A DNA stretch of 64,000 nucleotides. Origin: an uncultured Bdellovibrionales bacterium (GTDB lineage: Bacteria > Patescibacteriota > Minisyncoccia > Moranbacterales > UBA1568). Positions 59,128 through 64,000 of this stretch are shown here, piece after piece (positions within the stretch are counted from its first letter, which is position 1; each line of letters starts with the position of its first letter). Location of the stretch: the NCBI GenBank assembly GCA_964488025.1, contig CAZATJ010000002.1, forward strand, positions 13,840 to 77,839, given 5' to 3'. The notes beneath the pieces were generated by a model that did no database searches, was not told where the DNA came from, and was given only the letters and a program-made list of their open reading frames with translations. The translations under genes were made by a program, and so were the position numbers.

Positions 59128-59589
59128 TCAGCGATCGAGTTCGGAACTGTCTGGACAAGGGGCAAATGCGCATGTGGGACCGGTTCTGCCGACAAAGCTA
59201 CCGTCGGGGCAAAGCTTCACCTCTTGGGTGCAGAGTACTTTCTTGTTCGTTTTTTCAACCAGCGCCTCTTTCTGCGTAGGCTTGGTAGGAACTTTTTCTA
59301 TCGGTACTTCAAATGGTTCTTCGGTAATGCCTGGCCTATTAGGAAGATTATCGTGAGGACAAGGAGCAAACGCGCACTGCGGACCGGTTCGTGTCACCGC
59401 GCTCCCGTCGGGACATATTCTGGCTTCTTGTGTACAGGCCCTCATTCCTTGTCCCAAGGAAAAATCTTTGGAGTAAACGGAAAAAAAAGCAATCAGAAGT
59501 GAGAAAAAAACAACGAGCGCCGCAACAAGAGCGGTATCGGGGTGGAGAGGATATTTTTGCATAACGTTTTCTTTTTCTTCAGTATACAC
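59128..59589 (-). CDS. secreted Cys-rich protein with two 27-aa repeats (C-x5-CPDGS-x-V-x-RTGP-x-CAFAPCP)
   Basis: N-terminal TM/signal. Repeats CTQEARICPDGSAVTRTGPQCAFAPCP and CTQEVKLCPDGSFVGRTGPTCAFAPCP. Confidence 0.5.
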   Translation of the reverse strand: MYTEEKENVMQKYPLHPDTALVAALVVFFSLLIAFFSVYSKDFSLGQGMRACTQEARICPDGSAVTRTGPQCAFAPCPHDNLPNRPGITEEPFEVPIEKVPTKPTQKEALVEKTNKKVLCTQEVKLCPDGSFVGRTGPTCAFAPCPDSSELDR

Positions 59590-59618
59590 CCTACCCGAAG
59601 GGCTGTAAATTTTTAACG

Positions 59619-59645
59619 GCTGAGGACATGGGACGAAGTTGGAAC
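59619..59645. repeat. 27-bp array repeat, copy A (GCTGAGGACATGGGACGAAGTTGGAAC)
   Basis: Matches the consensus GCTGAGGCTCTGGGACGAAGTTGGAAC at 24 of 27 positions. Confidence 0.75.
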
Positions 59646-59650
59646 TTTTA

Positions 59651-60193
59651 TTACCTCAGGTTTTTGAAGCAATTCAACCAAGTTGGCCACCAAGGAATTG
59701 AAACAAAAGCAATTATTAAGCTTGTTAAGCTTGTGATGATGAGAATATGTTTTTTTATGTATTCTAATGTTTTATTAGAAGTCTTGTTTTGAATATTTCT
59801 TCCCTCTTCTTTTTGAATACTATTGATTTTTAGGTTTTCAAGCGTTATTGAGTGCCCACTAATTTCTTTGATTTTTCCTGATATCTTAATTTTTGTTTTT
59901 TGGTGTAATGTTTTTAATTCAGGGTTTTCTTCCAGACTGATCGAGCCATAGATGGAAGGGTAAACACCATTGAGATCAACCATAGTCACCCAAAAGAGTT
60001 CATCTTCAGGAGAGGGGTCTTTGTCATACGGAAAGGAGGGATGGTTTTCTTTATATGGATTATACAAACTTCGAAAGAGAACTGTCCATTCACATTGAAG
60101 ACCAATATATCCTTTTTCAGCTTCCTTTTGGAGATATACTGGCATTTTAGAGACAGCATTGATAATCTCAATTGGGTTGGGTTTTATATTCAT
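59651..60193 (-). CDS. hypothetical protein with C-terminal TM helix
   Basis: 180-aa ORF at low GC. No family. Confidence 0.4.
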   Translation of the reverse strand: MNIKPNPIEIINAVSKMPVYLQKEAEKGYIGLQCEWTVLFRSLYNPYKENHPSFPYDKDPSPEDELFWVTMVDLNGVYPSIYGSISLEENPELKTLHQKTKIKISGKIKEISGHSITLENLKINSIQKEEGRNIQNKTSNKTLEYIKKHILIITSLTSLIIAFVSIPWWPTWLNCFKNLR

Positions 60194-60453
60194 AAAAAAA
60201 TACGGCGAAAATATTATGTGCTGGGAAAGAAGGGAGGTCTCGCTGCTCTCCGCCGGTTGGCGGATGCGCTCTATAGGGCTTCCCTGCCCGAAGTGCTACA
60301 TCGTTGCAGGCGGGCGCCCTCTAGCCCGGCAAAGCCGGTCACCTCAAACGGACAAACGGGTGTTTTCCCGACCCCTCTTCTCGTTCGATCCCTTTACCTC
60401 TACAGAATAAAAGAAAATCACCATACCCACAAGGGGCATAGCGATTTTTCTTA

Positions 60454-60480
60454 GCTGAGGCTCTGGGACGAAGTTGGAAC
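60454..60480. repeat. 27-bp array repeat, copy B (consensus)
   Basis: gctgaggctctgggacgaagttggaac. Confidence 0.8.
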
Positions 60481-60503
60481 GTATTTACGGAATCAAGCGG
60501 TTT

Positions 60504-61544
60504 TTAAAAGTTGATGATTACATCCTTATTCTTTGTGTTTATTTGAACGGGCATGCCGTAGGGTATGGGAATTTGTGGGTCCGTATGGCCAAAATCTAAA
60601 TTTTGTACAATGGGTGCGGTCTTATTATACTGCCGTATGATTTGTAGAGTAGTTTCTCTTTGTCTTTTTCGATATTCTTCTTTTTCTTCGCTACTTTTTT
60701 GATTATCGAATTCCCATGCCTTGGGCCGCCCAACAAGAAAACCCTTGATCCTTTCTAAGATCCCCCGTTCCCCCATGGCTCTATAAATACGCCTAACATA
60801 ATCCGGCGAAGGTATTTCCTCAGATGTTTCCGTTAGTAAAATGATATTTTCAAAATCTTCAAGTGACGGCATAGGAATAGCATGGCGGAGCAATTCATCA
60901 ATTGATTCAAGGCAACCTCCCCAAGTTACGCCCTCTGCATTTTGGTTACCATCCCAAAACCAACCAGCATTGGGCTCGTAGGACTTATTCTTTCTCAGGT
61001 TTTCTGGGTCATCCCAACTTAAACCTTGATCGCAGTATGCATCGCTGGCTTGAATCTTTACTTCACCTTGCTGAAAGAGTGCGAGTTCTAAATACTTGGC
61101 CGTATATTTGTTTATTTTTCCTGACTCGGCAAACTGGGTAAAGAGTGCCCCTCCGTAGTAGGAGGGAATTCCATTGAGCCACAGGAAATTCATAAAGTGA
61201 GTATTATCACTATACCCGAAAAACGGCTTTGGATTGTCTATGAATGGCTTCGAGGGAAGATCTTTTATATATGTTACTTGGTCGTCACCACCCAGAGAAG
61301 AGATGATTGCTTGTATGTTCTTATCTTCAAATGCAGCTATCAAGTCTTGAGCCCTCTCATTTTTAGAGGCACCTATCTTTTTTGTTGTTGGAAATTCTAC
61401 AGGCTCTAATTGAAAATTTTCTCTCAGTCTTTTTAGTCCAAGTTCGTAAACATGAGGCCATTTTCCGGGAGCAGCAAATGATGGCGACAAAATGGCAACC
61501 TTGTCACCTCCTGTTAACTTTTTAAGTTGAGTGAAATTTTGCAT
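60504..61544 (-). CDS. S66 family LD-carboxypeptidase (LdcA/MccF-like)
   Basis: GDKVAILSPS, GYSDNT (Ser nucleophile), FGHTD (His). 346 aa. Confidence 0.75.
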   Translation of the reverse strand: MQNFTQLKKLTGGDKVAILSPSFAAPGKWPHVYELGLKRLRENFQLEPVEFPTTKKIGASKNERAQDLIAAFEDKNIQAIISSLGGDDQVTYIKDLPSKPFIDNPKPFFGYSDNTHFMNFLWLNGIPSYYGGALFTQFAESGKINKYTAKYLELALFQQGEVKIQASDAYCDQGLSWDDPENLRKNKSYEPNAGWFWDGNQNAEGVTWGGCLESIDELLRHAIPMPSLEDFENIILLTETSEEIPSPDYVRRIYRAMGERGILERIKGFLVGRPKAWEFDNQKSSEEKEEYRKRQRETTLQIIRQYNKTAPIVQNLDFGHTDPQIPIPYGMPVQINTKNKDVIINF

Positions 61545-61554
61545 AAAACTATGT

Positions 61555-61581
61555 GCTGGGGCTGTGGGACGCTGTTGGAAC
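61555..61581. repeat. 27-bp array repeat, copy C (gctggggctgtgggacgctgttggaac)
   Basis: 23 of 27 match to the consensus. Confidence 0.7.
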
Positions 61582-61595
61582 TTATTTGTCTTATT

Positions 61596-61874
61596 CTAAA
61601 GCTTTATAGTTGCTATAATCTTTTCAAAAATATCCACGTTATCTTGGTTATCACCAGGGTAAGAGGCTACAATTGTATTAAATCCATTACTTATCAATGT
61701 GTCAACCCACAACTCTCCCGCATACGCTCCCCTATAGGATGTTTGTGTGGCTACAAGATTACCAACTTTTACTGTTTTTTGAGTGAAATTTTCATGGTTA
61801 TCTGTCTTTTGCTTATTGGTAATACTGCTAATATCTTCTTGTTTTGAATAGATTATGAGTTGGTTCATTATCAT
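61596..61874 (-). CDS. hypothetical small protein
   Basis: 92-aa ORF. Confidence 0.35.
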   Translation of the reverse strand: MIMNQLIIYSKQEDISSITNKQKTDNHENFTQKTVKVGNLVATQTSYRGAYAGELWVDTLISNGFNTIVASYPGDNQDNVDIFEKIIATIKL

Positions 61875-61955
61875 TGCGTCTGGGATACCATTAGGACTAA
61901 TTGTATACAGTCCTAAGATGATATCTTGGCAAGAAGAAATAGCTCCGGGGGTATT

Positions 61956-62759
61956 TTAGTCTAATCCCACTTTTCTTTTTTTCCAATGTTCAATGTTACT
62001 GCTAACCTTAATAATTTTAGGTAGTTTGTTATCATTTATTAGCGATGAGTCTAGGACAGGAACCGGAAGAAATTTGAAACTATTGAGCACAGCTTCAACT
62101 TGTTTTCTCTCCGTTTTATTTATAGTGCCTTTATACGAGATGCTATCTTCATAGTAATTACACTGAGAAAGATCAATTTCTTGATCCTTACGTGTGCAAA
62201 TAGTTTGTTTATTGAACACCATATTGCTTCCGAAGAGAAACCCTGACTCATTCCATACACCGCTAGGATAATTTTCAAAATTCGTTATAGTGGCCCATGT
62301 TGATCTGTTTATAAGAGGATAATCAAAAGAAGCCCTTATTTTTTCAGAAAACTTTACGGTTGAAGGTAATGTTACTCCAGGAATGCCTTCTGTTGATATG
62401 CCCTGGGGAGCAATAAGTACAAATGTCCCCTGGGTAAAGTGGCTAGCCCCATTGGCGTTATCAAAAGGATTGTCAGGGCTATTCTTATAGAAAATGATTA
62501 CCGGGTCGGAACCCCTATCAAATTCTTTGTATGTCCAACCATTTGGAAGGACTACTTGAAAATAATATTTTGTATTTGTATATATGTTATTTTCAAAACG
62601 ACTTATAACTTCTTTTTTTGAAGTTTCGGCGGGCGTTATTGTTAAATTTACATGGTCCTTTTTAGGAGTTGATATTTGTAGAGAAAAAAGAGCAACTATT
62701 GTTGCTAAGATTAAAATTATAAAAATGGCTAAAGATGAATTTATTTTTCTGTAAAACAT
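61956..62759 (-). CDS. hypothetical secreted protein (signal anchor)
   Basis: 267 aa, N-terminal LAIFIILILATIVALFSL helix. Confidence 0.4.
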   Translation of the reverse strand: MFYRKINSSLAIFIILILATIVALFSLQISTPKKDHVNLTITPAETSKKEVISRFENNIYTNTKYYFQVVLPNGWTYKEFDRGSDPVIIFYKNSPDNPFDNANGASHFTQGTFVLIAPQGISTEGIPGVTLPSTVKFSEKIRASFDYPLINRSTWATITNFENYPSGVWNESGFLFGSNMVFNKQTICTRKDQEIDLSQCNYYEDSISYKGTINKTERKQVEAVLNSFKFLPVPVLDSSLINDNKLPKIIKVSSNIEHWKKRKVGLD

Positions 62760-62811
62760 ATTTTTTTATATCATAACACAAAAGCACCATTTTAGGTGCT
62801 TAAAAGTCTTA

Positions 62812-62838
62812 GCTGAGGCTCTGGGACGATGTTGGAAC
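62812..62838. repeat. 27-bp array repeat, copy D (gctgaggctctgggacgatgttggaac)
   Basis: 26 of 27 match. Confidence 0.8.
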
Positions 62839-62871
62839 CTATTTATTGCAAGAATTACCCTAATTAAAGCC

Positions 62872-63654
62872 TTATTCTGTAAATTTGTCTATCCAATTGA
62901 GAAATAGGCTTCTTATCTCCCCTAAATGTTCCTTTTCTCTGAAGGTATGTGGTGCGTTTTTGATAACATGAAACTCTTTTTCTCCTGGCAAAGCATTAAA
63001 CAGGATCCCTACTTGGTCTGGTGGAGTAGCAGTGTCATTCTCCCCAACAATGAGGAGGACGGGCATGGTAAGTTTTGAAGCCTTTGGAAGCAAATCGTAT
63101 TGTAATCTATCGATAATATGTGTCCACGGGAGTCTTTTGATAACCCCTGGTCTGGAAACGCTTTGCTCTTCTTTCCATCCTGTCTTCTCCCATCTCATGA
63201 AGTCATCTGGCTTAAAACGTTTGTGAGCCTCAACGCTCAGTTGACCAGATACAACAGGAGAAATCGGCGCGAGCGCTAAAACTTTTTCAGGATATCTTTC
63301 TGCAAAGAGTGCTGTGCAGATACCGCCTAAACTATGACCAGAAAGGGCAAAGAGCTCTTGATACCACACCTGATCTTTCGCCCAAGAAATCACATCCTCC
63401 AGATCCTCGTAGTAGTTCGTAATAGTGGCATCTTCGTATTTTCCGTCACTCTCACCGAAGGTATTGGTTGTATCAAAGCGTACAACAGTAAATCCTCGTT
63501 CCTGGAAGGCGTTTGCAATAGTGATAATATGATTTTGTTCCTTGAAACCACCAAGTCCGTGCATGACAAAGGCCAATCCGTTCTGATTCTCAGTTTGTTC
63601 AACAATCACAGAAACATTCTGTTCTTTGCGATTTTTGATAAAAAGTTTTTGCAT
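62872..63654 (-). CDS. alpha/beta hydrolase
   Basis: HGLGG oxyanion region and GHSLGG nucleophile elbow. 260 aa. Confidence 0.75.
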   Translation of the reverse strand: MQKLFIKNRKEQNVSVIVEQTENQNGLAFVMHGLGGFKEQNHIITIANAFQERGFTVVRFDTTNTFGESDGKYEDATITNYYEDLEDVISWAKDQVWYQELFALSGHSLGGICTALFAERYPEKVLALAPISPVVSGQLSVEAHKRFKPDDFMRWEKTGWKEEQSVSRPGVIKRLPWTHIIDRLQYDLLPKASKLTMPVLLIVGENDTATPPDQVGILFNALPGEKEFHVIKNAPHTFREKEHLGEIRSLFLNWIDKFTE

Positions 63655-63664
63655 AGATTTTCGT

Positions 63665-63737
63665 GCTGAGGCTCTGGGATTTATCCGCCTCGGGAGGACG
63701 AAGCCCGCCTGAACGATTCATTCGGGCAAGTTGGAAC
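63665..63737. repeat. array repeat, copy E, long form with about 48-bp internal insertion
   Basis: gctgaggctctggga + tttatccgcctcgggaggacgaagcccgcctgaacgattcattcgggca + agttggaac. The insert contains a GCCCG...CGGGC hairpin. Confidence 0.7.
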
Positions 63738-64000
63738 CTATTTTAAGTCCATTAACCAGATTTGACCCTTTTCTCCGTCTGGAGCGATTGCTACCCCAAC
63801 CCTCCTAAATTCGGAGTTGTCATGAAACCCCCAAGAGTCTTGGTGGGTGACTCCACTGAAAAACACCGCTTCTTGGTATCCTTCTTTTTTTGCCTCATCA
63901 ACTTGTAAGTTTCGTAACGCAGTCCCAATTCCTTTTCCTTGATATTTCGCTGCTACCACGTAGAATTCGATGACCTTGTCGGTTTTTGTATACTGCTTCA
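63738..64000 (-). CDS. GNAT family N-acetyltransferase, C-terminal part (N-terminus beyond window end)
   Basis: QGKGIGTAL acetyl-CoA binding motif A. The ORF is open to the window edge. Confidence 0.6.
   Translation of the reverse strand, partial: KQYTKTDKVIEFYVVAAKYQGKGIGTALRNLQVDEAKKEGYQEAVFFSGVTHQDSWGFHDNSEFRRVGVAIAPDGEKGQIWLMDLK

Follow-up and report, generated by a model that had tools for sequence, protein, structure and literature searches.

A probably mobile, structured-RNA element that follows tRNA 3′ ends in Patescibacteria, with a decayed copy inside a gene cassette array

The window (the whole 64,000-nt stretch of DNA analysed here) carries, at 60220-60400 on the minus strand, a member of a conserved element of ~130-190 nt that is found in Patescibacteria/CPR, as homology and covariance searches indicate. 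The best explanation for the block in which it lies, with a probability that we put at roughly 0.55, is a slightly decayed, stranded copy of a probably mobile element that encodes an RNA but no protein and tracks the 3′ ends of tRNA genes. The element itself we infer to be a structured-RNA module, probably mobile, for which any function is offered as a candidate only.

The block (60194-60454) fills the interval between the ATG of a minus-strand gene of 180 aa and array repeat copy B, which is where the initial annotation had placed it [Table 1]. Its G+C content is 52.9% over the full interval and 58.5% in the 200-nt segment 60200-60399, and it reaches 61.5% in the homologous core (60221-60399), against 38.4% in the two flanking genes and 39.6% in the array (59601-64000). 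Hence, the contrast of 58% versus 35% given at the outset holds for the core (58.5-61.5%) and is overstated for the interval as a whole. Stop codons occur in all three minus-strand frames, as had been claimed. The two plus-strand ORFs over the block (60041-60454, 137 aa; 60159-60410, 83 aa), already regarded as spurious, match nothing in Pfam, and one of them runs antisense over the 180-aa gene. Protein-coding homology, the finding that had been named as speaking against a non-coding RNA, was looked for with Pfam, and none was found. The minus strand of the block folds more stably than shuffled sequences do (z = -2.5), which is not true of the plus strand (z = -0.7). The short hairpins that had been pointed out are all present and map onto helices of the family described below. 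The block is not one unit, however: its right 50 nt form a terminator-like hairpin, so that two features rather than one RNA are present, and the CCTGC...GCAGG hairpin is a secondary insertion.

An nhmmer search with the block revealed copies at five other CPR genome loci, where a hairpin and then block-homologous sequence come after the 27-nt array repeat (the 27-mer) or a tRNA-Gln gene. A pattern based on the conserved core retrieved 105 metagenome stretches, while a profile search returned 67 matches, 59-62 of them distinct, in genome and metagenome loci; the distinct homologues in Patescibacteria genomes and metagenomes number at least 62. The covariance model R1, built on 27 copies and 142 positions long, gave 65 matches, which all have the same orientation with respect to the model. 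A single one falls in the window, at 60221-60399 on the minus strand; it spans model positions 1-142 of 142 and scores 95 bits (E = 4.8e-24). Neither self-BLAST nor the covariance model detected the block a second time within the 64 kb.

Members of the family share one order of parts: tRNA gene, terminator hairpin, inverted 5′ arm, a core of ~110 nt with four to five hairpins, and a direct-repeat 3′ arm. In canonical members, ~30-60 nt separate the element from a same-strand tRNA gene upstream, whose terminator hairpin immediately precedes it. A same-strand tRNA gene is present within ~150 nt upstream of 42 of the 62 copies, and these genes are of 14 isoacceptor kinds (Gln 10, Glu 7, Asn 5, and Thr, Gly, Lys, and Phe 3 each, among others). 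The other copies follow a 27-mer (seven, the window's and six more), lie at contig ends (five), or have neither neighbour (eight). The core begins with GAAC-GGGAA-GGGGUC, hairpin Pa, the near-invariant GUUUGGGGU-GACC and the variable hairpin Pc. It continues with hairpin Pd (CUAGAGGGC-GGAA-GCCCUAUAG), AGCGCA, the variable hairpin Pe and GAGYAGUGAGAU.

The two arms, which form the stem that closes the core, correspond to the 3′ part of the tRNA in opposite orientations. The 5′ arm is the reverse complement of the T-loop, the T-stem 3′ strand and part of the acceptor 3′ strand, and the 3′ arm is a direct copy of the T-stem 3′ strand, the acceptor 3′ strand and the discriminator. In 32 of 43 copies, the 13-nt 3′ end of the tRNA is repeated after the core at 12 or more of the 13 positions, compared to 0.35% when the tRNAs are permuted among the loci; an attL/attR-type direct repeat of the tRNA 3′ segment is, in other words, present for the family. 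The inverted arm matches the tRNA more poorly than the direct arm, and the greater decay of the 5′ arm points to weaker selection on the closing helix than on the core. Duplexes between arms of the same copy (-15.8 kcal/mol) are nonetheless more stable than those between arms of different copies (-11.4 kcal/mol). In L316, L310, and L263 the direct repeat reaches through the terminator, and in L229 the copy lies behind the terminator of a protein gene and its arms derive from that hairpin. As read from these alignments, linkage to tRNA genes and duplication of the tRNA 3′ end are properties of the family.

Several lines of evidence indicate that one strand of the core folds. Two core helices covary. 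Over 18 modelled pairs in 55 distinct sequences, 98.5% of the cells are paired, versus ~50% in slid-register controls. Double changes occur in 8 pairs and 45 cells, which 0 of 500 shuffles reached by a statistic that is not phylogeny-corrected. The 36 distinct Pc strings parsed (a few are mis-parses) are nearly all hairpins, many with tandem G-A; across the family, Pc and Pe vary widely in sequence yet form hairpins, and the Pd loop is a conserved GNRA (GGAA). Moreover, G-U/U-G cells outnumber A-C/C-A cells by 25:4, which identifies the tRNA-sense strand, the minus strand of the window, as the one that folds. For intact copies, a long closing stem around a multi-hairpin junction is predicted (z = -5.2, -5.2, -3.1, and -2.0). 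With conserved copies in relatives and compensatory changes both found, the early proposal of a candidate structured non-coding RNA is supported.

Covariation of the core, the GNRA loop, the tandem G-A and the G-U bias all indicate RNA, and together with the fixed orientation relative to the tRNA they raise the possibility of a resident functional small-RNA gene. Its tRNA-like helix would be cut by RNase P/RNase Z or handled by tRNA enzymes, and gene conversion would keep the arms matched to the tRNA during vertical descent. The same idea draws on a terminator-like hairpin just downstream of the element in 13 of 28 testable copies, as compared to 6% of shuffles, and on synteny upstream of tRNA-Gln and the element that six genomes have in common. 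We consider it unlikely, since 14 tRNA kinds with locus-specific arms would have required repeated new insertions. In L244, the cores shown for two copies are identical over ~100 nt, but the arms match tRNA-Tyr and tRNA-Glu, respectively (the identical cores could alternatively reflect gene conversion rather than transposition), and in L303 a 5′ arm of the Glu type is combined with a 3′ arm of the Gly type, making this copy a chimera; both loci speak for mobility or copying. Arms taken from a protein-gene terminator in L229, and copies that decay after being stranded in cassette arrays, such as the window's, likewise argue against a resident gene.

Variation around the element also bears on mobility. 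L156 carries a tRNA-Gln gene with the block's terminator hairpin, and the element is missing behind it. Among the five genomes with downstream sequence, gene content varies in the interval from the element to a conserved distal gene. The Pd loop has been invaded repeatedly, by a 32-nt GC hairpin in the window's copy, by a similar one in L277 and by a gene-bearing insertion in L279. Judged from these comparisons, the element marks a hotspot of foreign gene accumulation. All-versus-all clustering revealed no recurrent recombinase, transposase or reverse transcriptase near the copies, the recurring genes being host synteny only. No ORF lies between the repeats, hence an integrase within the element is absent.

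The window's copy, whose parts are listed in Table 1, differs from canonical members in what precedes it. Its hairpin and element align with the tRNA-Gln trailers of L185 and L319; the hairpin (60404-60449) is homologous to those after tRNA-Gln in L185, L319, and L156 and to that after the 27-mer in L221, and nhmmer matched block positions 2-56 to L156:4296-4350, directly behind the L156 tRNA-Gln. By alignment, 60220-60449 has the make-up of a tRNA-Gln trailer, but it is preceded by a 27-mer, repeat copy B, with the terminus CCTCAGC instead of a tRNA with the 3′ end CCCCAGC. The upstream partner of its direct repeat is this 27-mer, and the common part is CCYCAGC only. In the search for a same-strand tRNA ahead of the block, no tRNA was found in the window or in L002/L007, and ARAGORN identified 0 tRNA or tmRNA genes in the window. 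The notion of a foreign fragment, raised initially, is in this context half right: the sequence type is one that normally sits directly behind a tRNA-Gln gene, and here it lies within a cassette array.

Table 1 Features of the block and its surroundings in the window.
Feature	Position	Strand	Remarks
Array repeat copy A	59619-59645		After the 180-aa gene
180-aa gene	59651-60193	-	Downstream of the block; no Pfam match
AT-rich spacer	60194-60219	-	From the 3′ arm to the ATG of the 180-aa gene; outside the family model
3′ arm CAGCGAGACCTCCCTTCTTTCCCAGC	60220-60245	-	Decayed direct copy of the tRNA-Gln 3′ end; consensus AGTGAGATTCCCCTTCCTCCCCAGC
Variable hairpin Pe (UCCGCC-AACC-GGCGGA) with conserved flanks CGCA/GAG	60246-60268	-	Family alignment; initially noted as TCCGCC-aacc-GGCGGA
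Hairpin Pd (CUAGAGGGC-GGAA-GCCCUAUAG)	60269-60325	-	Covaries; GNRA loop broken by the insertion
GGGCGCCC			Junction of helix Pd and the 32-nt insertion
GC-rich hairpin insertion, 32 nt, in the Pd loop	60283-60314		Missing from most copies; contains CCTGC...GCAGG
GACC and variable hairpin Pc (CCGGC-UUU-GCCGG)	60326-60340	-	Initially noted as GACCGGC-ttt-GCCGG
Junction GAGAAGA, invariant GGGGUC, hairpin Pa (GGGAAAAC-ACCC-GUUUGUCC), single-stranded GUUUGAGGU	60341-60382	-	RNAalifold and covariation
5′ arm GAGGTAAAGGGATCGAAC	60383-60400	-	Decayed inverted copy of tRNA-Gln T-loop, T-stem 3′ strand and acceptor start; consensus GAGGAAGGGATCGAAC
Terminator-like hairpin (15-bp stem 60414-60449, U-rich tail 60404-60413)	60404-60449	-	Terminator scan
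27-nt array repeat copy B (GTTCCAACTTCGTCCCAGAGCCTCAGC)	60454-60480	-	Occupies the place of the tRNA 3′ end in canonical members

Both arms of the window's copy are of the tRNA-Gln type but decayed (TCCCTTCTTTCCCAGC versus CCCCTTCCTCCCCAGC; GGTAAAGGGATCGAAC versus GAGGAAGGGATCGAAC), and their duplex is predicted at -12.7 kcal/mol compared to the family mean of -15.8 kcal/mol. Within the core, GUUUGAGGU after Pa is near-invariant across the family with a few variable positions, and the Pe hairpin type recurs in L236 and L277. The Pd-loop hairpin insertion is found at the same site in L277/L301; the 32-nt sequence resembles, reversed, a hairpin that is inserted in an array repeat at L007:5608-5690. 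No sigma-70-like promoter was predicted directly upstream of the element. Given, in addition, the strong terminator-like hairpin upstream, expression of the window's copy is uncertain, and a hairpin so placed speaks against simple read-through from the preceding gene.

From ~59600 to the end of the window, all genes are on the minus strand, and each is followed by the 27-mer GTTCCAAC-NN-CGTCCCA-NNN-CCYCAGC. Contigs with identical proteins (MAG GCA_964348535.1) indicate that the array runs past the window. In the direction of transcription, it encodes a HAD hydrolase, a NUDIX protein, a GNAT protein, an alpha/beta hydrolase, proteins of 267 and 90 aa and an S66 peptidase, followed by the block, the 180-aa protein and then a protein of 144-153 aa; the junction with the block is the only long one. 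The exact 27-mer pattern is present in 67 stretches of CPR genomes labelled as Patescibacteria, Parcubacteria, Paceibacterota, Moraniibacteriota, Saccharibacteria and others (names as given in the public MAG records), and many of these loci have an upstream tRNA-Gln gene that ends in ...CCCCAGC. Within the 27-mer there is no dyad; its identification as a canonical attC was rejected for want of the dyad and of R boxes, and as a sigma-54 or sigma-70 promoter on account of strand and spacing.

A scenario that accommodates these data is as follows. The element would insert, or be copied, behind tRNA genes and leave the tRNA 3′ end duplicated, carrying both an inverted and a direct copy of its target end. 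The tRNA-like closing helix could allow trimming of the RNA by tRNA-processing enzymes, while the spare copy of the tRNA 3′ end could provide a further attachment site. The common CCYCAGC may be where cassettes with a terminal 27-mer recombine. Such cassettes probably entered between tRNA-Gln and the trailing element, and again behind the tRNA-like end of the element, a history that was reconstructed by comparing different genomes rather than an empty/filled pair in one lineage. The element would thereby have been left behind in the array, stranded as an untranslated leader ahead of the 180-aa coding sequence. It appears to be decaying there, as suggested by the weakened arms and the 32-nt hairpin in the Pd loop.

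Integrases that target tRNA genes classically leave a direct repeat of the tRNA 3′ end as their footprint. The direct repeat measured here therefore also fits a recombination site that acts as DNA only, either a folded site like attP/attC or a scar left by a miniature integrative element, with the tRNA repeats as attL/attR and the core binding a recombinase and accessory proteins. That variable gene content begins right behind the element, that the Pd loop is a recurrent insertion point (the window's copy, L277, and L279) and that the topology is like an integron cassette boundary (direct repeat, cassette, inverted plus direct repeat) would be in keeping with such a site. So would a tyrosine recombinase (L002:3506-4618) that is encoded ~9 kb upstream of the block and ~2.6 kb outside the first gene of the array. 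This protein is an ordinary member of the Phage_integrase family that other genes separate from the array, and phmmer found no homologues of it in 172 related loci; by any other copy, no recombinase homologue was found within the fetched stretches. Arms that differ with each tRNA would be unreadable by a single site-specific enzyme, and the block has no Rfam attC match. Moreover, compensatory changes, GNRA/UNCG-type loops and the G-U bias fit a folded tRNA-sense strand rather than a duplex protein-binding site. We rate a DNA-only site as improbable, below the small-RNA gene, and neither of these two is mutually exclusive with a mobile RNA-encoding element.

The remaining readings are disfavoured. 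The block is structured and lies between a terminator and a start codon, as would be expected of a cis-regulatory leader (riboswitch or attenuator) of the 180-aa gene. Members of the family, however, precede unrelated genes or other tRNAs with no constant downstream partner, which argues against this identity; there is no Rfam riboswitch match, and we regard such a role as very improbable. Compositional noise, a pseudogene fragment or a REP/MITE-like cluster of GC hairpins is scarcely credible: small GC hairpins do insert in the array, and the window's copy carries one and has decayed arms, but the whole-length match to the family model, without protein homology or a second copy in the window, refutes this reading for the core and confines it to the 32-nt insertion.

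Searches for a known family were negative. Rfam 15 gave nothing on the window at gathering thresholds, and only chance-level eukaryotic matches on 59500-60700 with E up to 10. On 17 loci with intact copies, it identified tRNAs, group I introns and one LOOT RNA, leaving the element itself unmatched. Rfam intron models found true introns in L262 and L267 and were silent on the element, which lies behind an intact, uninterrupted tRNA; a group I/II intron was rejected on these grounds. By eye and with Rfam, the core was judged to be neither HDV-like nor a hammerhead nor of group I type, and a retroelement-style primer-binding site in the 5′ arm was discarded because the arm lacks the CCA complement and often the complement of the last acceptor bases. 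A tRNA/tmRNA identity was set aside as well, ARAGORN and Rfam being negative and the likeness being confined to copies of the tRNA 3′ strand. In viral contigs of IMG/VR, a specific scan gave 3 chance matches, 0 of which fit the covariance model. Patterns that were too short returned an unrelated conserved phage coding region and scattered single matches (15 bases) or isolated matches only (17 bases). The searchable literature, queried by topic and by literal sequence, yielded no description of the element; a paper on group I introns in Patescibacteria tRNAs concerns anticodon-loop introns.

Comparison with known systems places the element close to several of them. Like tRNA-targeting integrative elements (tyrosine-integrase islands, prophages, ICEs, and decayed cis-mobilisable remnants), it uses a site at the tRNA 3′ end and leaves the tRNA intact, with a 3′ segment that starts in or near the T-loop directly repeated downstream and with variable genes gathering alongside. 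In contrast to those elements, only ~150-190 nt lie between the repeats, without an integrase or other gene. Furthermore, there is an RNA-type covarying core, an extra inverted copy of the tRNA end, and a single core behind 14 tRNA kinds.

Resemblance to integron cassettes and attC sites extends to a boundary repeat, cassette content, a folded site with inverted ends whose distal end repeats the boundary, an array of single-gene units that each end in a conserved site, and strand-specific folding. The element differs in lacking RYYYAAC/GTTRRRY boxes, in its arms of 13-20 nt that change with the tRNA, and in a core of conserved sequence, whereas attC conserves structure only. No IntI was identified beside the array in the fetched flanks, the L002 tyrosine recombinase left aside. 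An integron/attC identity was rejected on the boxes, the Rfam result and the lack of an adjacent IntI.

Structured RNAs on selfish elements, with segments complementary or identical to the insertion target, are another point of comparison (IS110 bridge RNA, IS200/605 omega-RNA, group I/II introns, and the R2 5′ ribozyme). The R2 5′ ribozyme pairs with its target rRNA, and insertion by hairpins/terminators is reminiscent of class C group II introns. The element is nevertheless far smaller than self-splicing introns and unmatched by Rfam models, and it has no adjacent recombinase, TnpB or reverse-transcriptase gene; a bridge RNA or IS605 omega-RNA was rejected because neither a recombinase nor a TnpB gene is adjacent in any of the loci. 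A role of its RNA as a guide is purely conjectural.

With tRNA-like RNAs (the tmRNA domain, YrlA/Y-RNA-like RNAs, viral tRNA-like structures, and minihelices), the element has in common a closing helix that copies the 3′ strand of the acceptor/T-stem and the discriminator end. The form of this helix is like that of the tRNA minihelix substrates of RNase P, RNase Z and the CCA-adding enzyme. It departs from these RNAs in having no T-loop/D-loop elbow, a core in place of the T-loop, and a helix identity that follows the neighbouring tRNA.

Finally, MITEs, REP/BIME, Correia and RPE sequences are similarly short, non-coding, relatively GC-rich and intergenic, with inverted termini and several copies per genome. 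The element differs from them in termini that copy the local target, an orientation fixed to the tRNA, an RNA-type covarying core with conserved unpaired nucleotides, and no short target-site duplication of fixed length. A MITE/REP identity was rejected because the termini vary with the neighbouring tRNA and because the window contains only one copy in 64 kb. Each of the systems compared (integrative elements, integrons, guide RNAs, minihelix mimics, and MITEs) fails at least one of the defining features tested. We know of no described element that unites a covarying core, target-tRNA arms in two orientations, a post-terminator site at many tRNAs and the lack of a protein gene.

A bolder version of the preferred reading is that the family represents a new, CPR-specific class of protein-less mobile RNA. 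Its target-built, tRNA-mimicking closing helix would serve homing or tRNA-like processing, and its spare tRNA end would be a landing pad for an as yet undescribed, integron-like cassette system, with 27-mer sites ending in CCCCAGC, that assembles arrays behind tRNA-Gln across Patescibacteria. We advance this version tentatively, as possible but doubtful.

CPR/Patescibacteria account for much of bacterial diversity, and to our knowledge almost nothing is known of their non-coding RNAs or of how they acquire genes. The element is conserved across several CPR classes and absent from Rfam and the searchable literature, and its tie to tRNA, inverted and direct copies of the target end bracketing a covarying core, has no counterpart among the elements known to us. 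Should it prove to be a mobile RNA-encoding module, it would represent a new, target-templated mode of insertion; should it prove to be a processed tRNA-mimic RNA, it would be a new RNA class in organisms of minimal regulatory repertoire. Either way, the element is an edge marker of hypervariable gene arrays and makes gene flow into tiny genomes directly testable.

An integron-like array with one gene per unit occupies positions 59604-64000 of the window and continues in L007:3823-9782 and in L002, two contigs with identical proteins that extend it. Its genes encode HAD, NUDIX, GNAT, alpha/beta hydrolase and S66 peptidase proteins together with unknowns, and 3′ of each unit lies a 27-mer with the motif GTTCCAAC-NN-CGTCCCA-NNN-CCYCAGC (see the table). 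Across many CPR lineages, 67 stretches contain the exact motif, usually 3′ of a tRNA-Gln with the 3′ end ...CCCCAGC. Assignment of the 27-mer as a canonical attC was rejected, and no integrase homologue was found in the other loci carrying it. The recombinase, excisionase-like, methyltransferase and helicase genes upstream of the array in L002 raise the possibility that the array resides within a larger integrative or defence island. Just beyond the last 27-mer, a gene encodes a protein that has a hydrophobic segment at the N-terminus and in which a Cys-rich repeat (C..E.K.CPDGS.V.RTGP.CAF.PCP) occurs twice; no Pfam match was found for this protein.

Tiny GC-rich hairpins interrupt 27-mers as well as loops and junctions of the folded tRNA-trailing element. 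They are of the types GCCCGCCTG...CGGGC, TCCGCC...GGCGGA and GCCTGCC...GGCAGGC, and those inserted within 27-mer copies carry a 2-3-nt sequence repeated on their flanks. They appear to represent a distinct class of miniature mobile hairpins. A LOOT RNA and group I intron matches share CPR neighbourhoods with the element.

Coordinates of the array repeats, neighbouring genes, hairpins and other RNA features
Feature	Location	Strand	Remark
27-mer copy	window 59619-59645		
27-mer copy	window 60454-60480		
27-mer copy	window 61555-61581		
27-mer copy	window 62812-62838		
27-mer copy	window about 63655-63737 (= L007:5608-5690)		interrupted by GC-rich hairpin
Tiny GC-rich hairpins	as preceding row; L007:5069-5142; window 60283-60314; L277; L264; L185:2632-2853		
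Tyrosine recombinase	within L002:1-4618		370 aa; upstream of array
HTH_17 excisionase-like proteins	within L002:1-4618		upstream of array
N6/N4 DNA methyltransferase	within L002:1-4618		upstream of array
SNF2-family helicase	within L002:1-4618		upstream of array
153-aa protein gene	window 59128-59589	minus	in 50% G+C DNA
LOOT RNA	L156:1368-1491	minus	72 bits
Group I intron	L262:1182-1390	minus	88 bits, above threshold
Group I intron match	L267:1029-1229	minus	39.5 bits, below threshold of 50
'Mirror' elements with other cores	L169, L180, L184, L211, L163, L173, L196, L207, L189		

Further tRNA-trailing 'mirror' families with different cores lie just 3′ of tRNA-Gln. Their layout runs from an acceptor-5′-like segment through a hairpin, a T-arm complement and an unrelated core to a repeat of the tRNA 3′ end in direct orientation; in L189, a GGGGUCGGG...CCCG module is the only shared part. 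This suggests that the tRNA-trailing 'mirror' elements form a superfamily defined by its architecture.

In L279 (4597-4700 and 5950-6000), and also in L242, an insertion that carries a 339-aa gene and has direct repeats CCCGTCTCGCCGAGGTGAGCCGAG at its boundaries cuts the element off at the loop of its core hairpin Pd. Such an insertion point represents a second type of cassette site, for which the Pd loop serves as target. Upstream of tRNA-Gln and the element, gene order is conserved (L217, L231, L265, L279, L286 and L288, and also L319 and L242), and the stretch from the element to a conserved distal gene holds one to four genes, mostly unique, so that the tRNA-Gln-element locus marks the edge of a hypervariable island.

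The element at L303:2199-2347 is chimeric, with a 5′ arm of tRNA-Glu type and a 3′ arm of tRNA-Gly type when compared with L297:5972-6132 and L226:4752-4912. Such mixed arms imply homologous recombination between dispersed copies, and hence genome rearrangement mediated by the element.
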